Source: a virus. From it: DNA of 64,000 bases. The DNA lies in the IMG/VR virus record IMGVR_UViG_3300019886_000004, positions 1 to 64,000 of that record. One strand, 5' to 3'. Numbering within the stretch: position 1 is the stretch's first letter; each line of letters opens with the position of its first letter. The notes beneath the pieces are model-generated. The model had not been told where the DNA came from. It searched no databases and was given only the letters and a program-made list of their open reading frames with translations. This document shows positions 1 to 9,011 of this stretch, piece after piece. A program made the position numbers and the translations under genes.

Positions 1-120
1 CCATAGCCATTGCCATAGCCATAGCCATCGCCATTGCCATTGCCATAGCCATCGCCATTGCCATTACCATAGCCATTGCCATAGCCATAGCCATCGCCAT
101 TGCCATTACCATAGCCATAG
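1..120. repeat. hexamer tandem repeat CCAT(A/T/C)(G/A) x20
   Basis: 20 consecutive 6-mers (ccatag/ccattg/ccatcg/ccatta). Confidence 0.97.
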
Positions 121-173
121 GTGCTTTGACTTTCCTCAAAATTAATTGCTATTCTTAGACTATTTGTTTCCAT
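1..173 (-). CDS. Gly-(Tyr/Asn/Asp) dipeptide-repeat protein, 3' truncated by window start
   Basis: Not in ORF track. ATG at 173 overlaps the end of the 155..493 ORF; reads METNSLRIAINFEESQSTYGYGNGNGDGYGYGNG... Confidence 0.75.
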   Translation of the reverse strand, partial: METNSLRIAINFEESQSTYGYGNGNGDGYGYGNGYGNGNGDGYGNGNGDGYGYGNGY

Positions 174-493
174 TTTTCTTCATTTACGGTAATAGTATGT
201 ACTACAGTTAACCAATCAAATTCAACAACTCCTTCAGTCTTATCTAAGATAGTGCTAGAAGTGACTCCGTTTACTAACTCAGCTAATCCTTTTGTTGTTC
301 CCCACTTTCTTATGCAATAAGCACTTGTAAGCTTACAATCATTTCCTATCCTTTCGAATCTTCCTATGTAAACCCATCCGCGTTGGAGAATTACAATTTT
401 TATATTGCTTTCTTTTTTCTTTTCTTTAGCTACGTATTCTACACCATCAATATAGGTGCCACCCTCAACTATTTCTACTACTTTCTTTTTCAT
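155..493 (-). CDS. phage beta-barrel protein (DUF6948-like, possible Sm-like fold)
   Basis: IVILQRGWVYIG...IRKWGTTKGLAEL pattern; followed by GYG repeat gene. Confidence 0.55.
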   Translation of the reverse strand: MKKKVVEIVEGGTYIDGVEYVAKEKKKESNIKIVILQRGWVYIGRFERIGNDCKLTSAYCIRKWGTTKGLAELVNGVTSSTILDKTEGVVEFDWLTVVHTITVNEEKWKQIV

Positions 494-694
494 GTTTTTT
501 TATTTGATTTTGTTAGTTAAAGAACGATTACTTTTATAGTCTAAATTGCTTGCTTTAGTATATTCAACAAGAATATCTAACAAGCTTTACTCTATCAAGG
601 CCACGAACACTTTGAGATTTACATGCATCCGCAAACACAATACCCTATAGAAATTACATCGATTTATTACCCCTAGTAAATTAGACTATGGTTT

Positions 695-728
695 AAAAGA
701 GCTGAAGTAATTTCTTACTCCAGCTCTT
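695..728 (-). terminator. intrinsic terminator
   Basis: minus strand AAGAGCTGGAGTAA-GAAA-TTACTTCAGCTCTTTT. Confidence 0.65.
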
Positions 729-906
729 GGTCGTGAGTCCTACGCTTGAATGGATGGAAAGATGCCTGCTAAGCGAGTTTAAAGTTTGTTTTGGATCATT
801 AGTTTATAGGCTGTTCTACACAACCATATAAGTCCAATTAAAGCTAATAGACCGCCAATAGAGAAGTAATCTCCATTAGGATCGATGTATAATAATGTTA
901 ACATAG

Positions 907-1092
907 TTAGTTTAAATGAATAAGTGTAAGAAGACGAGACATTTTAACAAGTTTAGCAGTATGATTATCATCTAGTAATCCATCATACATAACTGCTTTT
1001 ATTCTAAGGCTAACAGTTCTTTGGTGCCAATTATAAAGAGTACTACCTAATGGTACCTCTTCAGCTGTATTATCCAGTGCATATTTCTTCAT
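907..1092 (-). CDS. hypothetical protein
   Basis: ORF with A-rich leader, co-oriented with neighbours. Confidence 0.6.
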   Translation of the reverse strand: MKKYALDNTAEEVPLGSTLYNWHQRTVSLRIKAVMYDGLLDDNHTAKLVKMSRLLTLIHLN

Positions 1093-1173
1093 AACATAAA
1101 GTTTGATTGGTGAATATTAAATAAGGTGTGGGTATGAATATCATACAGTCATGTTCAGGGTGATTAATCATGA

Positions 1174-1443
1174 TTATTTTTTTGTTAGACAAACGAATAT
1201 TATCAAACTTACTACATATATAAATGCGAGAAGTGGTAGCCATTCGAGTTTCTTAAAGTAGATAATGATTGCATCCAATGGATCAAAAAGTTGATTAAAA
1301 TCCGGCAGCTTAAATAACCAGATGAGCACAATGAGTGTAGTTATTACAAAATAAGTAAAAAGAAGTATTGCTGCAATAAGCCACCAAGTCATTAATCCAA
1401 TCCATTTAAGGACTTTTAATAAAAACTCTAGCACGTATTTCAT
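1174..1443 (-). CDS. small membrane protein
   Basis: two long hydrophobic stretches. Confidence 0.7.
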   Translation of the reverse strand: MKYVLEFLLKVLKWIGLMTWWLIAAILLFTYFVITTLIVLIWLFKLPDFNQLFDPLDAIIIYFKKLEWLPLLAFIYVVSLIIFVCLTKK

Positions 1444-1664
1444 ATTTTATAAATTGTTTTAGATTTTTTATTCTGTTCTTTTTGTGAAACTATCTTCCAG
1501 TGTCCTGGGCGTAAAAATATCTCATTACGTGGATGTATTTCTCCTTTTTTATAAGATTTTAGAATAAATCCCATGCTGTTTGTTATTGTGTAACTTCTCC
1601 TGCATTTCAACTTAACTCTGGAAGACGTATCATTTGTGATTTCTAGTAATGTTACCTTACTCAT
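1440..1664 (-). CDS. hypothetical protein
   Basis: ORF, ATGA-coupled to next gene. Confidence 0.6.
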   Translation of the reverse strand: MSKVTLLEITNDTSSRVKLKCRRSYTITNSMGFILKSYKKGEIHPRNEIFLRPGHWKIVSQKEQNKKSKTIYKI

Positions 1665-1666
1665 AA

Positions 1667-2035
1667 TTAATAGTTTTTGTCAAACCATTCATAAAATTCC
1701 CACGCAACTTTATCGTAATCTGATTTATCAGGATCTGGATTGGGATAATACTTATGTATCATATAGTCCGTATGTATTTTTACAATGTCTTCTCTACTAT
1801 ACATTTTATCCATAGGAAGAATGATTACTTCATTAGCAGGAAATGGAACTAATTTTAGTCTCTTTTTAGAATATTCCTCATCTATTCTAGCATCATATAC
1901 AGTAACTATCTCAGTTTGAAGCCTCACCTTATCAATCTTTCCTTGTTTCTCAACCCATCTCTCAATAAATGAAGAAGGTATAAGTGGAAGAGATAAGGAT
2001 TTGTTGGTACATGCGACGATAACTTGTTTTTTCAT
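1667..2035 (-). CDS. hypothetical phage protein, probable C-terminal half of a gene split by the HNH
   Basis: KQVIVACTNKSL-LPLIPSSFIERWV...YSREDI; ATGA overlap with HNH stop. Confidence 0.65.
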   Translation of the reverse strand: MKKQVIVACTNKSLSLPLIPSSFIERWVEKQGKIDKVRLQTEIVTVYDARIDEEYSKKRLKLVPFPANEVIILPMDKMYSREDIVKIHTDYMIHKYYPNPDPDKSDYDKVAWEFYEWFDKNY

Positions 2036-2718
2036 ATTAAATATTTGAATCTATTTTCGGTGCCTCTACTAAGAGTATGATACAATGATGAATCAGTTCT
2101 ACCAACAGATTTAGCAGCTTCCATTATTGTATTAAATACTTCTCCAGAGGTACCATCAATTATTTTTCTACTGTTTGATAAATGAGTTCTGTCAGGATAT
2201 GTAATCTTTGGAAAACTATAATGACTCGTAATATGTTTCCAAGTCCTTCCAGATCGAATGAAACTAAAAGTAGTTTTTGTCAACTCTGGAATTGTTTGCC
2301 TTATTTTTGGAAAATGTTCATTTTTCACAATGGCTTCACATATCTTTATCACTTCCACTTCCGTAAGGACTGAATTGGCATTTTCTTGACCTATTCCACC
2401 TCTACTCCTAGATACAGCTAAACCTGTTCTATAAGCATGTTGCATATTATGAGCTGCTGTACACCACTCTAAATTATCAAGAGAATTGTTGCATTTATTA
2501 CCGTCCATATGATTTACTTGAGGTAGGTTATCTGGATTGGGAATAAAAGCTATAGCTAATAATCTGTGAACACTTTTCATTACAGGTTTACCGTCTCTAC
2601 GAAGATAGACACTAGGATAACCTCTCGCGTTTATGTGATGTTTTATTGGCTTGGATCCTCTTAGATGAGTGATGTCTCCAGATTCTTTGATATTATAGTT
2701 GAAATCTTGTATTTTCAT
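2032..2718 (-). CDS. HNH homing endonuclease with C-terminal NUMOD-like DNA-binding domain
   Basis: VHRLLAIAFIPNPDNLPQVNHMDGNKCNNSLDNLEW; C-terminal GEVFNTIMEAAK; ATG 2718 follows its own promoter. Confidence 0.9.
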   Translation of the reverse strand: MKIQDFNYNIKESGDITHLRGSKPIKHHINARGYPSVYLRRDGKPVMKSVHRLLAIAFIPNPDNLPQVNHMDGNKCNNSLDNLEWCTAAHNMQHAYRTGLAVSRSRGGIGQENANSVLTEVEVIKICEAIVKNEHFPKIRQTIPELTKTTFSFIRSGRTWKHITSHYSFPKITYPDRTHLSNSRKIIDGTSGEVFNTIMEAAKSVGRTDSSLYHTLSRGTENRFKYLI

Positions 2719-2722
2719 AATA

Positions 2723-2754
2723 CAAAGATACGACAAATATCTTGAATTTCCAAA
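2723..2754 (-). promoter_or_regulatory. Bacteroidota housekeeping promoter for HNH gene
   Basis: minus strand TTTG-N20-TATCTTTG, 4 nt before ATG. Confidence 0.8.
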
Positions 2755-2755
2755 T

Positions 2756-3013
2756 CTATTTCCATTGTTTTAGTTGCCCGTCTTCGATGTACCAATCACC
2801 TTCTTTAATCTCTTGCTCAGAGACTAGATATAGATGTTTAGGATTGGGTACTATCATTCCATCCATGTACCTTTCATATGATATAATTTTTCCAATTGCT
2901 TCGGACTTAGAAGTATATAAAGATAGATGGTACACATAATGAGGAACTTCTGGTGCTCTAACTTCTCTACCTACAGGAAGCATTATAACACTACATGTTA
3001 ATTCATTTTTCAT
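2756..3013 (-). CDS. hypothetical phage protein, probable N-terminal half of split gene
   Basis: VIMLP...HLYLVSEQEIKEGDWYI pattern. Confidence 0.65.
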   Translation of the reverse strand: MKNELTCSVIMLPVGREVRAPEVPHYVYHLSLYTSKSEAIGKIISYERYMDGMIVPNPKHLYLVSEQEIKEGDWYIEDGQLKQWK

Positions 3014-3260
3014 GAGATCTTTTTAAGTGTTTATTTAATTTCCTCCAATATCTACCAGTGCGATGGTAATACCATTGTGTTTTAATAGGCCATGGGAACC
3101 ACCAATGAGACCAGTAAGTACCTACTGGAAATGCAGCAAAACATGCACGCCCTTCTAATGGTAAGCTAGGTGTGTCAATTTTAATAAAAGAACACATGCT
3201 AATTTGAGCATTAGCATGTGTTAATGAGATTGTTATAATAAGTGTTAATAAGTATTTCAT
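3003..3260 (-). CDS. secreted hypothetical protein
   Basis: signal-peptide-like MKYLLTLIITISLTHANAQ. Confidence 0.55.
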   Translation of the reverse strand: MKYLLTLIITISLTHANAQISMCSFIKIDTPSLPLEGRACFAAFPVGTYWSHWWFPWPIKTQWYYHRTGRYWRKLNKHLKRSHEK

Positions 3261-3261
3261 C

Positions 3262-3975
3262 TTAATAAAGTTTAGCTTCTTGGAGTAGCTCAGGTAGTTG
3301 CGCTATTTTGTTTATTCTTTTCTTTAGTGACTGTATTGCCTCCCATTTAGCGTTATTTACAATCTTAGGACTTCTATTTAGTTCTACTGCTATCTGCTTT
3401 GGCTCCCAACCTTTAGCGGTTAAATGTAATATTTGTCTTCGCAGTGGATGAAACTTGTCAATCTCTTGATTGAGTATTGCAGTTATTTCAAGTTGAGCCA
3501 TTATCTTATCCTTTTTATCGCGTAGGTTCCAGTCTTCGTCCATTATAGTTTCTTCCTCCTTTTCGAGTAGTTGGGTGAACGGAGTCTTACCGTTGTACAT
3601 TTCTAGAGACATATTTTTCACACTGACATATAAGGTTCTGCGCAAAATTTGCTCACTTTCGTATTCGTGTATGTTCTTCAAGAAACGATACATAGTTTCT
3701 TGTACAGCATCTTTAGCAGCATCTATATTTTGTAATATTTGATGAGCGGTCAATACTAATCCCCTCCAGTGCTTTGTATACACAGAAACCAGCCAATTTT
3801 CATATTGTTCAGTTCGCACACCTGATCGTTTCGTTGTTCTGTTGTTTCTCGCAGAGCAACTGCGTGAACAATAGTTTCCTTTCAGGCCGCATCTTTTCAT
3901 GTGTACTATTACACTCGGCTGGCGGTCGAATTTGATACCACATCCATCGCAGGTCAATTCTATTAAAGTTCGCAT
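3262..3975 (-). CDS. ECF-type sigma-70 factor with N-terminal Cys4 zinc finger
   Basis: CDGC...YCSRSC; region 2 (AKDAVQETMYRF...LYVSVKN); region 4 (RQILHL...KQIAVELNRSPKIVNNAK). Confidence 0.8.
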   Translation of the reverse strand: MRTLIELTCDGCGIKFDRQPSVIVHMKRCGLKGNYCSRSCSARNNRTTKRSGVRTEQYENWLVSVYTKHWRGLVLTAHQILQNIDAAKDAVQETMYRFLKNIHEYESEQILRRTLYVSVKNMSLEMYNGKTPFTQLLEKEEETIMDEDWNLRDKKDKIMAQLEITAILNQEIDKFHPLRRQILHLTAKGWEPKQIAVELNRSPKIVNNAKWEAIQSLKKRINKIAQLPELLQEAKLY

Positions 3976-4004
3976 AAAATAAAGTTTAATAGGTTTAAAA
4001 ATTG

Positions 4005-4033
4005 AAAAGGGAGACTACCTAGAGCCTCCCTTT
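4005..4033 (-). terminator. intrinsic terminator
   Basis: AAAGGGAG...CTCCCTTT stem with T-rich tail on minus strand. Confidence 0.55.
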
Positions 4034-4103
4034 GTTCTTACTAACTCACATAAAATGCTACTAATGCACAAATTCTTTTTGTTAGTAAGATAGCACAAAA
4101 ATC

Positions 4104-4358
4104 TTAATAAGTTTTGTTAATCCACAATATGTGGGTAAATTCACGTTTGAATTGGGATAGGTATACTTTATAAGTAAATTTGGCAACCGTAGCATCCTCA
4201 AACGGAGCCACTTTATTTGAGGCATACCTATTCTCTTGTGCCCAATAAGGAGTTCCGTTTACGAAATTCTCTTTGTTACTTAATAAAGCTACAAACATCT
4301 TAATTTCGTAAAGATCACCTGTTGTTGGAGTGATAGGTAGCCATTGAATATCATCCAT
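4104..4358 (-). CDS. hypothetical protein
   Basis: ORF. Confidence 0.6.
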   Translation of the reverse strand: MDDIQWLPITPTTGDLYEIKMFVALLSNKENFVNGTPYWAQENRYASNKVAPFEDATVAKFTYKVYLSQFKREFTHILWINKTY

Positions 4359-4548
4359 TACATATCAATTTTTGTTTTATCGTATACATATAGAAAAATA
4401 AAAGTACACCAAATTCTATCCACCACGGAGCCTCATGTTTAGGATATGCCGCCGTTAATAAGCAGGCTGCTACACATCCACATCCAAAACCTTGCAAAAA
4501 AAAAGTATTAAAATCTTTAATATTGTCATATTAGGTAAATTTAGAAAA

Positions 4549-4620
4549 CTAACTAATAATACTCCCACTCCCACTCCTACTCCCACTCCTATATATCTTT
4601 TTTAAATGTGACTGTATCAT
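4549..4620 (-). CDS. 23-aa RS/GS-repeat peptide
   Basis: MIQSHLKKIYRSGSRSGSGSIIS*; paralogue of 8097..8246. Confidence 0.6.
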   Translation of the reverse strand: MIQSHLKKIYRSGSRSGSGSIIS

Positions 4621-4645
4621 AATTTTATTATATTAGGTAAATTTA

Positions 4646-4680
4646 AAAAGTACCAGGTTACATTATCACCTGGTACTTTT
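4646..4680. terminator. bidirectional intrinsic terminator
   Basis: 13-bp perfect stem AAAAGTACCAGGT/ACCTGGTACTTTT. Confidence 0.75.
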
Positions 4681-4970
4681 GTTTACAGCGCTTAAAGCAC
4701 GCTGGGTGAGTTTGTTTCGTTACAGTTATTGCTTAAACAGCAGCATGGATAACGTACAGCTTTTGAGATTAAAGAGGTGGTTTGCCCACGTATATCCCGG
4801 TTATTATTAGACAATACTCATATGCACCGCAATGTGACTGTATCAATTTCACATTGTTTTATCTCGATATTCTATATATGCTAGTGGATATCATCCTCTA
4901 ATCATTCTATACCACGCCAACCAGGGTCTAGCCAACCTGGCTGTTGAGGCTTACCTTTATGCGTAAGAAG
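4681..4970 (-). ncRNA. candidate structured ncRNA (~290-320 nt)
   Basis: no ORF of 60 aa or more, GC-enriched, several hairpins (CAGCCAGG/CCTGGTTG, CAATGTGA/TCACATTG, GTGG/CCAC, CAGCG/CGCTG), ends at terminator. Confidence 0.45.
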
Positions 4971-5174
4971 TTAAAAGTCGTTTTCAAAATCAAGAAACTC
5001 AAGACCACTTTCTATTTGAATTTCATGCTGTAATTTTTCATTCTCTTTTGTTTGCTCAGGAGTTAGTTTACGATAATATTGTTTTAAAAGCTCTGCAAGA
5101 TCATGATACTCAATATCTGTGAGAGTTTGTTTTGCATTACCACTAATACTTACTGTCTCTTTGATAATATACAT
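4971..5174 (-). CDS. hypothetical protein
   Basis: ORF. Confidence 0.6.
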   Translation of the reverse strand: MYIIKETVSISGNAKQTLTDIEYHDLAELLKQYYRKLTPEQTKENEKLQHEIQIESGLEFLDFENDF

Positions 5175-5178
5175 GCTG

Positions 5179-5628
5179 TTAAAATTGTAGCTTGAATAAT
5201 TCAGTTTTAGGAGGTAAGCACATTTCTTCAGTACATGGTTGATATGTTATACTAATATTCATGACTGCCACAGTTAATTTATACCTATTAATGAAACGTT
5301 GAGTAAAGTCCACACTTTCGTACCATATAGCAGCAATATCGGATACTGTATCTCTCCATGTTACTTTTGTACCTACTTCGTGAGTAGGACCAGCTTTCTT
5401 AAAGTAGTCATTGGATTCATATTTAAAACTAGTAGGTGTAGATACAGAATTCTTAGGCTGCACTTGGCTATAAATATGCCATTCAGTGTTTATAGTGGGT
5501 TTCATATGTACTATAAACACACTATCATTTATGTTTTGTGTGCTGATTTTCCAATGCACAGGATATTCGTCTTGTGCATGTGATACACTAAGGAGTAATA
5601 TGTGAATAGGTAAAAAAAGATATTTCAT
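5179..5628 (-). CDS. DsbD N-terminal (thiol:disulfide interchange) domain protein, exported
   Basis: signal peptide; PVHW, WHIYS, YQPCTEEMCLPP (CxxxxC-LPP). Confidence 0.8.
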   Translation of the reverse strand: MKYLFLPIHILLLSVSHAQDEYPVHWKISTQNINDSVFIVHMKPTINTEWHIYSQVQPKNSVSTPTSFKYESNDYFKKAGPTHEVGTKVTWRDTVSDIAAIWYESVDFTQRFINRYKLTVAVMNISITYQPCTEEMCLPPKTELFKLQF

Positions 5629-5767
5629 TTTTTGAATGGTTTAGATAGTAAATATATAAGAAACCCTAAAATTATAAAACAACTAGTAATCAATAAAGTC
5701 CTCATTATTTCATTTAAATTTAGATCATCCATAAACTTAATAGGTTTATTAATTTAATAAGTTAAAT

Positions 5768-5803
5768 AAAATAGCCCTCACCAAATGGATATTGGGCTAT
5801 TTT
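5768..5803. terminator. intrinsic terminator-like hairpin
   Basis: AAAATAGCCC/GGGCTATTTT. Confidence 0.6.
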
Positions 5804-5837
5804 TCTCATGAAACGACTGTCCAAATTGTGACTCCCT

Positions 5838-6080
5838 CTAAATAGCTTCAATGGTAAGTGCACCTTTAAATGCATGCATTACGTGTTCTTCTTCATAGTT
5901 ATCACCTACAAGACTATCAAGTGTCTCTGTAGATATAGAAACCACCGGTCTCCTGTACTCTTTACTTTCTTTTTGTTTTTTAAAGGTACCTTGCCATACA
6001 AATGTAACTCTGTCATCTATATTTTCAATAGTAAGTTTTTCAGCAACGCTTTTGATGAGCTTTAGTGATTCGTCTTTCAT
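5838..6080 (-). CDS. hypothetical protein
   Basis: ORF with Bacteroidota-type leader. Confidence 0.65.
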   Translation of the reverse strand: MKDESLKLIKSVAEKLTIENIDDRVTFVWQGTFKKQKESKEYRRPVVSISTETLDSLVGDNYEEEHVMHAFKGALTIEAI

Positions 6081-6096
6081 TTTATTTGTTTGATTG

Positions 6097-6318
6097 TTAA
6101 CTTATTACGTATGGATGTTCTTGTACTATTATTTTTATTACTTGATAATTATTGGAATGGTTAAAAATGAAAATTCGGTTTGTAACTCTGTAAATTTTCT
6201 GATTAATCTCTACAAGATCTTCTTTGTCTGGTATTATTGGTTTATCAACATATTCATAGGTGTTTAGTCTTTTAAGACCATCAAATCCACCCAATTCTAT
6301 AGTTATTTTTATATCCAT
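6097..6318 (-). CDS. hypothetical protein
   Basis: ORF overlapping upstream stop. Confidence 0.6.
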   Translation of the reverse strand: MDIKITIELGGFDGLKRLNTYEYVDKPIIPDKEDLVEINQKIYRVTNRIFIFNHSNNYQVIKIIVQEHPYVIS

Positions 6319-6794
6319 GATTTTGGATTTATATATTTAATGTTTTTATTTTTACTTATCGCATATTCAATACAATTAGCTGTACCACCAGGAGTCCCAT
6401 CCGATGCTGCCAGTAGAAAATCATCTTTAATTAATTGGTCAACCATCCATACATTACGATCTTGCATACAATGGTTATTATAAGGTTCTTTTGATACCCA
6501 ATGTTTTATAATAGCATGTTCATATAGATACTGATAAAGACTTTTGGAAAGCGGTGGCCATTTCTTATCTTGATTAACACACGGAATAGCTATAGTAAGT
6601 GGGATACCTAATCTAATGGCTAATAGCGCCACTATTTGATCATAACCAAGTGCTAGTCCGGTGATTATACGATCGGGCTTATATTCGTTTACAATAGCTT
6701 CTGTTTCTGTTTCTAAATGACGAGTATAGGGACCAATAAGACCGTATTCAAATCCCAGTTTATTGGGTCTATGACCCGTTACTACTATTGTCAT
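6309..6794 (-). CDS. YspA/DUF1273-like SLOG family protein
   Basis: VTGHRP, ITGLALGYDQ, RNVWMVD, GGTANCIEYA motifs. Confidence 0.85.
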   Translation of the reverse strand: MTIVVTGHRPNKLGFEYGLIGPYTRHLETETEAIVNEYKPDRIITGLALGYDQIVALLAIRLGIPLTIAIPCVNQDKKWPPLSKSLYQYLYEHAIIKHWVSKEPYNNHCMQDRNVWMVDQLIKDDFLLAASDGTPGGTANCIEYAISKNKNIKYINPKSWI

Positions 6795-6911
6795 AGAAAG
6801 TTATTTAACATTTGATTAAACAAAGAATAAATGCACAAAAGACAATGAGGGCTAATATCTCTGTGACCGTAACTGTATTGTCATCTGTTTCATGCTTCAT
6901 TGTGAATAATT

Positions 6912-7124
6912 TTAAATGTGTGAAGGATATTCGTCTTTGTTAGTAGATTTTGCAATATTTTTTGTCATTACTTGTGTGTAGAGATGGGCGCTAAAGTTAC
7001 TACCATAACAAAAGTTCACTTTGAGTTCATCTTTAAGGGTCCATCCTTCATCAAGGAGTTCATTCACCTCTCTTTCTACATCAATCATATAGTGTTCAGA
7101 AACTATTTTGATTATTTGGGGCAT
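6912..7124 (-). CDS. DUF1737-like small protein
   Basis: VNELLDEGW...YTQVM pattern. Confidence 0.55.
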   Translation of the reverse strand: MPQIIKIVSEHYMIDVEREVNELLDEGWTLKDELKVNFCYGSNFSAHLYTQVMTKNIAKSTNKDEYPSHI

Positions 7125-7144
7125 TTTAATTAGTTTTAATTATT

Positions 7145-7354
7145 TCAGTTTTGCATTATACATCCTGATCTACAAATGGTATTTTCAGTTGTACAGCACC
7201 TCCAGTATCCTCCCATTTTAAAACATGATACTTTGTTCATAGCTCCGTGTTTTTTACAGTGAGGAGTTGGATTTACTCCTTTTACAGTAGTTTTGTATAC
7301 TACATTTTCGAAGTTCGAGTTATTGTCAGGTATAGGTAGTAAAATTACTGACAC
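7145..7354 (-). CDS. small Cys/His-rich (putative Zn-binding) protein
   Basis: CKKHGAM...WRCC...CRSGC; GTG start. Confidence 0.55.
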   Translation of the reverse strand: MSVILLPIPDNNSNFENVVYKTTVKGVNPTPHCKKHGAMNKVSCFKMGGYWRCCTTENTICRSGCIMQN

Positions 7355-7355
7355 A

Positions 7356-7874
7356 TTAATAAGTTTTATCAGTTATAAGAATACCATTATTGTGGTCAAT
7401 TTCGTGTTGAATAGTAGCACCTCCTTCTTTAATGTTAAACCATTTCGTATGACTCTTACCATTTTCATCATACCATAACACTTTAATATTTGAGGCTCTT
7501 GATACAAGTATAGGTTCTTTTAATCTAATAGATCCGCAGTTGCTATTCATTGCGAAATTATTATCATCCCTCCATTCTATAATATCAGGATTAATCATAA
7601 TTTCGCAATAGGTATTATGTTTACCTCGACTTCTGACAATACCAATAATATTAAACGGTATAGCTACATTGGCACCTGACATTCCATGTGGTAATTCGTA
7701 GTCATCAAATTTTATCAATGCTAAGGACTTTATATATCTGCATATTTCACGTATTAGATATTTGTATTGATGAGATGACTTAAATAATCTCATGTTAACA
7801 GGTAATAGCTTACTTTTGAGATGAATAACATCTCCAGGTGTATTAATATAAGTTAGGTAATCATTTATTTTCAT
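7356..7874 (-). CDS. def: peptide deformylase (divergent)
   Basis: GMSGANV, MINPDI, NCGSI, QHEIDHNNGILI. Confidence 0.8.
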   Translation of the reverse strand: MKINDYLTYINTPGDVIHLKSKLLPVNMRLFKSSHQYKYLIREICRYIKSLALIKFDDYELPHGMSGANVAIPFNIIGIVRSRGKHNTYCEIMINPDIIEWRDDNNFAMNSNCGSIRLKEPILVSRASNIKVLWYDENGKSHTKWFNIKEGGATIQHEIDHNNGILITDKTY

Positions 7875-8096
7875 AATTATTTTTTATTAGTTATAGGGTG
7901 GACATCATGGATATAATACTATGCAACGTGTTATCGTTTTTTATCCCCTTCAGGCTGTTAAGCTGCAGCTCACCTAATTCAGGATGCACAAGGCATACTC
8001 TGGCCATTTGGTAACGCGCTATATCTATTAATCCACCCCTTTCCTAATGATTTGAATGTGTGTCGTTTTTTTTCTTATTGAATTCCTATTAAAGTA

Positions 8097-8246
8097 CTAA
8101 CTAATAACACTCCCACTCCTACTCCTACTCCCACTCCCACTCCCACTCCTACTCCTACTCCCACTCCCACTCCCACTCCTACTCCCACTCCCACTCCTAC
8201 TCCAACTCCTAATCCTATATATTTTTCTTAAATGTGAAGTAATCAT
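8097..8246 (-). CDS. 49-aa RS/GS dipeptide-repeat peptide
   Basis: MITSHLRKIYRIRSWSRSGSGSRSGSGSGSRSRSGSGSGSRSRSGSVIS*; ATGA overlap with upstream gene. Confidence 0.7.
   Translation of the reverse strand: MITSHLRKIYRIRSWSRSGSGSRSGSGSGSRSRSGSGSGSRSRSGSVIS
8109..8216. repeat. hexamer tandem repeat ACTCC(C/T/A) x17 plus one degenerate unit
   Basis: direct reading. Confidence 0.95.
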
Positions 8247-8521
8247 ATAGTTGTTTTGAAAGATTTTCCAAATGATTCAATAGCTGACTTTTGTACATAC
8301 CATTCAGTTGCAAATTTTTGAGCATCCTTAAACTTACTATCACTAAATATGCCTGTTTCAAATATTTGGTATACATCTTCTAACTTAATACAGGTTTCAT
8401 TCACTCCTATTAATCTTCCATAATAGAAATAATTGAAACAGAAAATAAGAACATATTCTCCTAATAAAGAACTGAATCCTTCATTTTCAACTTCTACAAC
8501 TTTTACTGGTAGCATTTTCAT
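8243..8521 (-). CDS. putative Sm/LSm-like beta-barrel protein
   Basis: LLGEYVLIFCFNYFYYGRLIGVNETCIKLED...WYVQKSAIESFG resembles Sm1/Sm2 spacing. Confidence 0.5.
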   Translation of the reverse strand: MKMLPVKVVEVENEGFSSLLGEYVLIFCFNYFYYGRLIGVNETCIKLEDVYQIFETGIFSDSKFKDAQKFATEWYVQKSAIESFGKSFKTTI

Positions 8522-9011
8522 AATTTTTAATTTTGATTATTTAAAATTTATTATTAAAATATAAATTCATCGAGATAAAGACTCATTTCTTTAACTCTTT
8601 TAATTGCTGGTTAATCTCACGCCTGATCTGATTAAAGATAAATTTTGGAAGAACCATATACTACTTTCTCTAGAAATAGAATGAGTATTTGTGGTTTACA
8701 CTCAACCTTCCCTGTCCTTTACTCTAACTTTTGAAAGGTGCTATTAGGATTGAGCGACTTTATCAGCGACTTATTAATATTGGTCTACCTAAAACGTCCT
8801 TTCTGTATGCCATAATTAATTGATTTAAAGAGCTAATAATATGCATGTGAAACATATAAAGAATATGAGAACAAATATTATTTGTGGTAAGATATTTGGG
8901 TTAGGGTTACATTCACTATAATCTTTCATTTGAACAATTTAAAGAGTTAACTAGATGAGATAAAGCAAAGAACTCATCATCTATCTGGATTTGTTTTCTC
9001 TAGTTAATAAG

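Follow-up and report, generated by a model that had tools for sequence, protein, structure and literature searches.

Sm-like genes and dipeptide-repeat ORFs at one phage locus

The window analysed here is the stretch of 64,000 nucleotides (nt) that spans bases 1–64000 of the 147,916-bp IMG/VR virus record IMGVR_UViG_3300019886_000004, which CheckV rates 100% complete and which is classed as ‘linear’; its G+C content (GC) is about 31%. In its first kilobases, one kind of phage cassette occurs in two independent copies. In each, a gene for a protein of about 100 amino acids (aa) with a predicted Sm/LSm fold is followed by a coupled gene for a second protein, made of a leader and a disordered dipeptide repeat. 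A recurrent module of this composition (a barrel gene with a coupled dipeptide-repeat open reading frame, ORF) had been proposed from the letters of the DNA (the original prediction), and the module is real, with two cassettes in the window and a pairing that is conserved in relatives. Nearly all long ORFs in the first 10 kb of the window lie on the minus strand, and window positions 1–9000 had no match among GenBank phages by megablast. The parts of the module, including a third repeat gene that stands alone, are as follows:

1–173, minus strand: (Y/N/D)-Gly repeat protein, N-terminal part (ORF 3–173), a leader followed by TAT/AAT/GAT-GGC hexamers
155–493, minus strand: Sm-like protein A, 112 aa, of a divergent DUF6948-like family (by AlphaFold2, Foldseek and VIA)
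4549–4620, minus strand: orphan RS peptide, 23 aa with 5 repeat units, leader MIQSHLKKIYR, tail IIS
8097–8246, minus strand: (R/G/W)-Ser repeat peptide, 49 aa, leader MITSHLRKIYR, AGG/GGG/TGG-AGT core, tail VIS
8243–8521, minus strand: Sm-like protein B, 92 aa, no Pfam family (by AlphaFold2, Foldseek and VIA)

The repeats are visible at the DNA level as period-6 arrays at 1–120 (CCATNG, score 149–177), 8108–8217 (score 155–192) and 4561–4589 (Tandem Repeats Finder), and a periodicity scan combined with a six-frame search of the 147,916-bp genome found no others besides a continuation at 147,757–147,916. The hexamer-encoded (Y/N/D)-G, (R/G/W)-S and orphan RS ORFs of the original prediction each have an ATG and stand as described, except that the first of them is incomplete at a contig break. 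Its leader, MxxxxLRIAINFEESQST (M-ETNSLRIAINFEESQST), runs into TAT/AAT/GAT-GGC units that resume at the far contig end, where positions 147,757–147,916 encode the C-terminal part of the protein, ending ...GNGY-stop; the contig is thus cut inside the array, and ORF 3–173 is the N-terminal part only. Abutted directly, the two contig ends are out of frame, so part of the array sequence must be missing. Several related contigs likewise end inside an array, and a 125-kb syntenic relative (G011) was called as having ‘direct terminal repeats’, its terminal repeat being an array of the same type. Such arrays break assemblies and can mislead genome-end calls. Immediately after the (Y/N/D)-G stop, and outside the window, lies a minus-strand gene (147,560–147,756 of the genome) whose product starts MKHLKVLLSVFIIACITLTSC, a lipoprotein-type signal; the gene in this position varies among relatives, with a signal-peptide- or lipoprotein-like start in two of the loci read.

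In both cassettes the repeat ORF begins within the Sm-like gene: ORF 8097–8246 overlaps gene 8243–8521 by ATGA, and the (Y/N/D)-G ORF starts at position 173, 19 nt inside gene 155–493, as compared with gene–peptide overlaps of 13–25 nt among relatives of gene A. The overlaps show the Sm-like gene and its repeat ORF to be, as read from the DNA, translationally coupled. The stretch at 170–175 is dual-coding: the third base of the Lys107 codon and the first two of the Trp108 codon (AA-ATG-G) supply the ATG of the repeat protein. Trp108 of protein A is invariant in a 30-member family alignment, which may reflect both constraints, namely the Sm-like codon and the start of the repeat protein.

The orphan RS peptide shares its leader, MI(T/Q)SHL(R/K)KIYR, and its tail, (V/I)IS, with the peptide encoded at 8097–8246, and no Sm-like gene adjoins it. 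It is absent from the syntenic relative G011, and the gene is flanked by a 29-nt direct repeat (4519–4547 and 4621–4649, 86% identical, core ATATTAGGTAAATTTA). This repeat could be a promoter region that was duplicated, or a scar left by the duplication event behind the gene, and because of it the orphan looks like a recent local duplication.

The Sm fold of both proteins, originally judged by eye, was borne out by AlphaFold2 models compared with known structures, in that nearly all top matches were to Sm/LSm proteins. Protein A was modelled with a mean predicted local distance difference test (pLDDT) score of 75.7, with residues 30–112 well modelled and the N-terminal 30 residues poorly defined. 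Its best Foldseek match in the Protein Data Bank (PDB) was 3by7 (E-value, E, 1.5e-3), and an exhaustive VIA comparison gave a Z score of 9.1 to 3by7_A (root-mean-square deviation, rmsd, 2.5; 72/80 residues; 19% identity) and 8.4 to Lsm. Protein B was modelled with a pLDDT of 92, and Foldseek returned almost only Sm/LSm proteins for it, the best being Lsm 4m75_K (E 4.8e-4, template-modelling score by target 0.77); VIA gave Z 10.8 to Lsm (rmsd 2.3 over 67 residues), the top 30 rows all being of Sm/LSm/SmAP type. At the level of sequence families the picture is empty: proteins A and B had no Pfam family at E <= 0.1 and no PHROG, PDB profile searches with families A and B found no Sm protein, and the family A profile had no match at all among PDB sequences. 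The models therefore support membership of both predicted proteins in the Sm/LSm/Hfq superfamily at the level of fold, and not at that of the sequence family. The fold in question is a small beta-barrel of five strongly bent strands, in most cases with a short helix at the N-terminus. The RNA-binding pocket of Sm proteins has an aromatic residue and an Asn in loop 3 and an Arg in loop 5; invariant asparagines (Asn51 in A, Asn41 in B) both lie after strand 2 and are at most candidates for its Asn. Profile–profile comparison of A with B aligned the same strands at a probability of 3.7%, which is not significant, so that a common ancestry of the two families is suggested by the fold only.

Family A comprises 1357 homologous clusters at 90% identity, none with a Pfam name, and its alignment contains 38 invariant columns, including QRGW, N51, C53, IRxWGTTxGL, LDK, VEFD, HTI and W108. 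DUF6948 (PF22253, curated cut-off 27 bits) was weakly matched by 8 of the 30 family A homologues, with a best E of 4.9e-4. The window’s own protein A had no match to PF22253, and a six-frame search of the whole genome gave none at E <= 10. Of the 30 ESM Atlas clusters nearest to protein A, 28 are viral and carry DUF6948, on 16–49% of their members; protein A is thus likely a distant relative of DUF6948 rather than a recognised member. Family B has 75 close relatives, and at 50% identity it is represented by 507 sequences. A few of these are tandem Sm-Sm fusions in one chain, and the longer ones are either such tandem proteins or miscalls. One GC-rich contig that encodes such a tandem protein has no obvious repeat peptide downstream, and the gene there adjoins a TnpB/OrfB_IS605 gene.

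Conserved pairing with cognate repeats in relatives

Relatives of both Sm-like genes were taken from IMG/VR, and an array was scored where at least 5 units occurred within 450 nt downstream. The original prediction had named linkage to repeat ORFs in homologous loci as a test of itself, and the linkage is there: an X-Gly array lies downstream in 44 of the 45 scorable relatives of gene A, and an X-Ser array in 76 of the 79 relatives of gene B. Equal-sized upstream flanks, taken as a control, contained arrays in 1/41 (A) and 1/76 (B) loci. As some loci are near-duplicates, the distinct arrays number 44 for A and 64 for B. The pairing is also specific to the class of repeat, since no A-type gene was accompanied by an X-Ser array, and a single B-type locus had an X-Gly array only. 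Partners of A share the leader M..RIAxNFE(D/E)SQN(T/S)(Y/H) and end in GY, and those of B share a basic leader (e.g. MxxSxKxKYRS). Each Sm-like family thus retains its own repeat class and leader, and the partners are cognate, contrary to the earlier suggestion that the low-complexity partners are interchangeable.

A homologues with 44% identity (tblastn) also occur in cultured phages, namely 115 Rheinheimera phage Barba isolates and two Rhodobacter capsulatus phages. The Barba pair consists of gp018 (105 aa) and gp017, a short leader followed by GNGYG... repeats. In the isolates the Sm-like gene is always 315 nt long and the next downstream gene always 210 nt, with the peptide gene between 210 and 252 nt (210, 216, 240 or 252), its differences amounting to whole Tyr-Gly-type units.

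Within a pair the two proteins always remain separate. Both in the window and in relatives, the Sm-like ORF ends at a stop codon and the repeat ORF opens with its own ATG in a different frame. A programmed frameshift that would fuse A to its peptide was considered and rejected, given that no conserved slippery heptamer was seen by eye, that the ATG is conserved, and that the Barba genes are separated by a 3-nt gap rather than an overlap.

The amino-acid pattern of the repeat bodies is retained even as whole hexamers are gained and lost fast. Glycine is encoded mainly by GGC in 32 of the 44 A arrays, by GGA in 5, by GGT in 5 and by GGG in 2, and serine mainly by TCT in 29 of the 64 B arrays, by TCG in 15, TCA in 12, AGT in 4, AGC in 3 and TCC in 1. 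Downstream of one distant, GC-rich B homologue the repeats are CGG-TCG, and the partner of another distant B homologue is a non-repetitive, S/G/W/R-rich protein of 77 aa whose leader carries the LRKIY motif found in the window’s peptides. As the dipeptide is kept while its codons turn over, selection appears to act on the translated peptide and not on the DNA word. Within one array, variation is limited to the first position of the X codon, and the variable residues accordingly form either the NGG set (Gly/Trp/Arg) or the NAY set (Tyr/Asn/Asp, rarely His), in neither of which a change of the first base ever gives a stop. The synonymous sites of an array are homogeneous (GGG 481 versus GGA 9 and GGT 7), and arrays of both types keep GG every six bases. 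This pattern fits fast concerted evolution by slippage together with selection for a mix of residues, though a constraint on the nucleotides themselves, to keep GG at every sixth base, may also be at work. The other frames of the arrays (Met-Ala/Ile-Ala, Gly-Val, Thr-Pro) were rejected as coding candidates, being ‘synonymous’ within one array and not conserved between phages.

The same regularities could be read as those of an element that acts at the nucleic-acid level, i.e. G-rich (GGNNNN)n repeats serving as a hot spot of recombination or slippage, or as an array on its own mRNA to which the Sm-like protein binds, with the peptide as a by-product. The GG spacing, the restriction of variation to one base in NGG or NAY, the homogeneous synonymous sites and the tendency of assemblies to break in the arrays are all as such an element would have them. 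However, the dipeptide persists whichever of the four Gly codons is used and whether Ser comes from the TCN or the unlinked AGY box, the start codon, leader, frame and placement of the stop are all conserved, and one homologue has the non-repetitive partner of like composition noted above. With these points against it, we consider this the least probable of the explanations weighed here.

The architecture of the small ORF, a conserved and family-specific leader followed by a repetitive core, is also that of the precursor of a ribosomally synthesised and post-translationally modified peptide (RiPP), in which case the core would be modified or cleaved and the Sm-like protein would recognise the leader. 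Cys53 and His99, invariant in family A, may be counted in favour of such a role. Yet no modifying enzyme is a constant neighbour, the flanking genes varying by phage in the loci that were read, a Sm barrel of about 100 aa is not known as a RiPP recognition fold, and the cores are of variable length with 30–50 repeats. These points make a RiPP-like system very unlikely.

Intergenic segments and neighbouring genes

The original prediction placed a folded non-coding segment beside each of the three repeat loci and saw these as an RNA part of the module; we find no ground for retaining them. Against dinucleotide shuffles, two of the four segments fold at chance level (4681–4970, z +0.5/-0.8; 8581–8756, z -1.3/-0.2), and the other two are moderately structured (536–689, z -4.0 on the plus and -2.1 on the minus strand; 7896–8038, z about -2.5 on both strands). 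The whole gaps 494–778, 4621–4970, 7875–8096 and 8522–9011 gave z values of -2.1, -3.5, -2.1 and -0.2, the value of -3.5 for 4621–4970 being due to a terminator-like hairpin at 4646–4680. By blastn, none of these gaps resembled any of about 150 related loci, the syntenic relative or the rest of the genome, and a distant blastn search with 4621–4970 likewise gave no match. Relatives have only a short gap upstream of their Sm-like gene (median 36 nt in 25 A loci, 50 nt in 42 B loci); a length of 200 nt is reached in just 4 of these 67 gaps. Given this lack of conservation and the short gaps in relatives, the structured RNAs do not belong to the module. The ORF-poor segments 4681–4970 and 7896–8038 have a GC of 41% and 44%, as against about 32–35% in their surroundings; such long gaps of somewhat raised GC are a trait of this phage, outside the conserved module.

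No Rfam family reached its gathering threshold anywhere in the window, and at E <= 1 there were just repeat-driven microRNA artefacts and sub-threshold noise; a tRNA scan found none; and a simple scan for sigma-70 promoters and terminators returned no more sites than shuffled sequences did. Two hairpins that lie outside the conserved module, together with the neighbouring genes, are listed here:

697–728, minus strand: terminator-like hairpin, 14-bp stem then UUUU, ending the upstream transcription unit in the gap before gene A
2032–2736, minus strand: HNH endonuclease, a neighbouring early-region gene
3262–3975, minus strand: sigma-70-like protein with an N-terminal zinc-finger-like segment (weak matches)
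4646–4680, no strand assigned: terminator-like hairpin, 13-bp stem with A-run/T-run flanks, upstream of the orphan peptide
5179–5628, minus strand: DsbD_N-like protein with a signal-peptide-like start
6309–6794, minus strand: SLOG/YpsA-like protein
7356–7874, minus strand: peptide deformylase

Possible action of the cassettes and their known counterparts

We propose that the Sm-like protein may form a ring, that this ring would hold the conserved leader of the cognate repeat protein, and that it would thereby display several low-complexity tails supplied in trans. The result would be a multivalent particle that acts early in infection on nucleic acid, with RNA as the most likely kind, in a manner that can be likened to eukaryotic Sm/LSm proteins with RG tails or to Hfq with a repeat C-terminal domain; the neighbouring intergenic ‘structured RNAs’ would not be components of it. 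That the Sm-like protein oligomerises, binds the leader, displays the repeat tails and acts on RNA is a tentative proposal, which we find quite possible while stopping short of calling it probable. In its favour are the predicted fold, the conserved pairing by repeat class, the coupling through overlap of the genes, the signs of selection on the peptide, its fast length change in whole units, the opposite charges within each pair and, in a relative, the early transcription. A ribonucleoprotein or condensate function, as first put forward for this locus, is purely conjectural. A more elaborate form of the idea is a minimal ‘sticker-and-spacer’ system, in which the Sm-like ring would recruit, via the leader, trans-supplied Tyr- or Arg/Trp-rich repeats into an early RNA condensate or chaperone particle, with repeat number and residue mix being tuned fast by hexamer slippage within the ‘stop-safe’ NGG/NAY codon sets; in this full form we think it unlikely.

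The expression data come from the cultured relative. RNA-seq of Barba18A groups gp018 and gp017 into the first temporal cluster, their expression being highest at the first time point, along with genes of replication and nucleotide metabolism (PMC9305737, section 7 and Table S2). This shows that the pair is transcribed, and does not bear on translation. The main text of the Barba papers makes no mention of gp017 or gp018.

The main rival to a ring that binds leaders and acts on RNA is that the repeat peptide itself acts against a target other than RNA, the Sm-like protein serving it solely as a dedicated chaperone, neutraliser or assembly scaffold. For the Arg/Trp-rich peptide this target could be, for example, the envelope or membrane; the acidic, Tyr-rich peptide could be aimed at a host protein or at a defence system. 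Charges are opposite within the pairs, as would suit a neutralised effector: protein A is mildly basic (net +3, pI 8.9; the family is neutral to basic, with a mean net charge of +1.4) and has an acidic, Tyr-rich partner of pI 4, and protein B is acidic (net -2, pI 5.1; family mean -2.3) and is paired with a peptide of +10 and pI 12. The tight coupling of genes that are always separate, the very fast evolution of the peptide beside a nearly invariant Sm-like protein, as expected of a host-facing molecule, and the extra, orphan copy of the peptide without an extra Sm-like gene all point the same way, and Arg/Trp-rich peptides are often membrane-active. Nevertheless, the peptides have no signal peptide or hydrophobic segment, transcription of the pair in the cultured relative is early and not late with the lysis genes, and the extreme conservation of family A, with its 38 invariant columns, suggests more than a passive chaperone. 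On balance we hold an effector with its keeper to be possible, if somewhat unlikely.

Several observations also weigh against the ring model itself. First, none of the homologues was a fused Sm-plus-repeat protein, a search for longer forms having given only N-terminally extended ones, and there is consequently no evidence from fusion for a physical association of the two proteins. Secondly, none of the 30 family A and 33 family B homologues matched the LSM or Hfq models of Pfam. Thirdly, the acidic character of protein B would be uncommon in a Sm protein that binds RNA. Finally, B was found in 0/5 large A-bearing contigs and A in 0/5 B-bearing contigs, with the window genome and the 125-kb relative, which were positive for both, serving as positive controls. 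The idea that the acidic and basic peptides act jointly was rejected, as the two cassettes occur independently in other phages; for this reason a joint coacervate of both peptides is excluded as the general mechanism.

Among the known systems closest in design are the eukaryotic Sm/LSm proteins with low-complexity tails, such as the GR repeats of SmD1, the RG tails of SmD3 and SmB, and the RGG or Q/N-rich tail of LSm4. The phage cassettes resemble these in combining a predicted Sm-fold core (VIA Z 8–11 to Lsm/Sm chains) with a dipeptide-type, disordered, Arg/Gly-rich segment. They differ in that the phage repeat is a separate, coupled gene with no fused form found, that its repeats are X-Ser or X-Gly with Trp, Tyr, Asn or Asp, that the phage proteins have no Pfam LSM match, and that one of the Sm-like partners is acidic. 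From the bacterial world, one report describes an Acinetobacter Hfq whose C-terminal domain consists of GGFGGQ repeats with an acidic tip, a redundant Gly/aromatic repeat in which copy number matters for function (PMC11617691). Here too, a bacterial-world Sm core is combined with a Gly/aromatic repeat. In contrast to the separately encoded phage repeats, however, the Hfq repeat is fused to a bona fide Hfq core, VIA Z scores of the phage proteins to Hfq chains are lower (5–7.5), and the phage repeats are dipeptides of two classes, one acidic and one basic. The protein that matches A best in structure, 3BY7, is a marine-metagenome protein described as ‘structurally similar to Sm/LSm-like RNA-binding proteins’, and neither it nor DUF6948 has a described repeat-peptide partner or an assigned function. 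Full-text literature searches found no paper that mentions DUF6948 and none that describes a pair of Sm-like protein and repeat peptide in phages.

The cassette is thus widespread but undescribed and without a name. It is common, with 1357 clusters (90%) in family A and 507 representatives (50%) in family B, nearly all viral or metagenomic, and its repeat genes are easily missed or mis-framed. What is new here is a phage with both classes and an orphan copy, the rejection of an RNA component, the independence of the two classes, a linkage quantified against control flanks, and a cultured model for which expression data exist. Rheinheimera sp. BAL341 and its phage Barba18A (gp018/gp017), for which RNA-seq already exists, make the question directly testable. 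If it is true that these Sm-like proteins use tails encoded in trans, the cassettes would offer a simple model for the use of disordered repeats by Sm cores, in which core and tail can be separated genetically, and may be a case of phage-driven RNA control or condensation.

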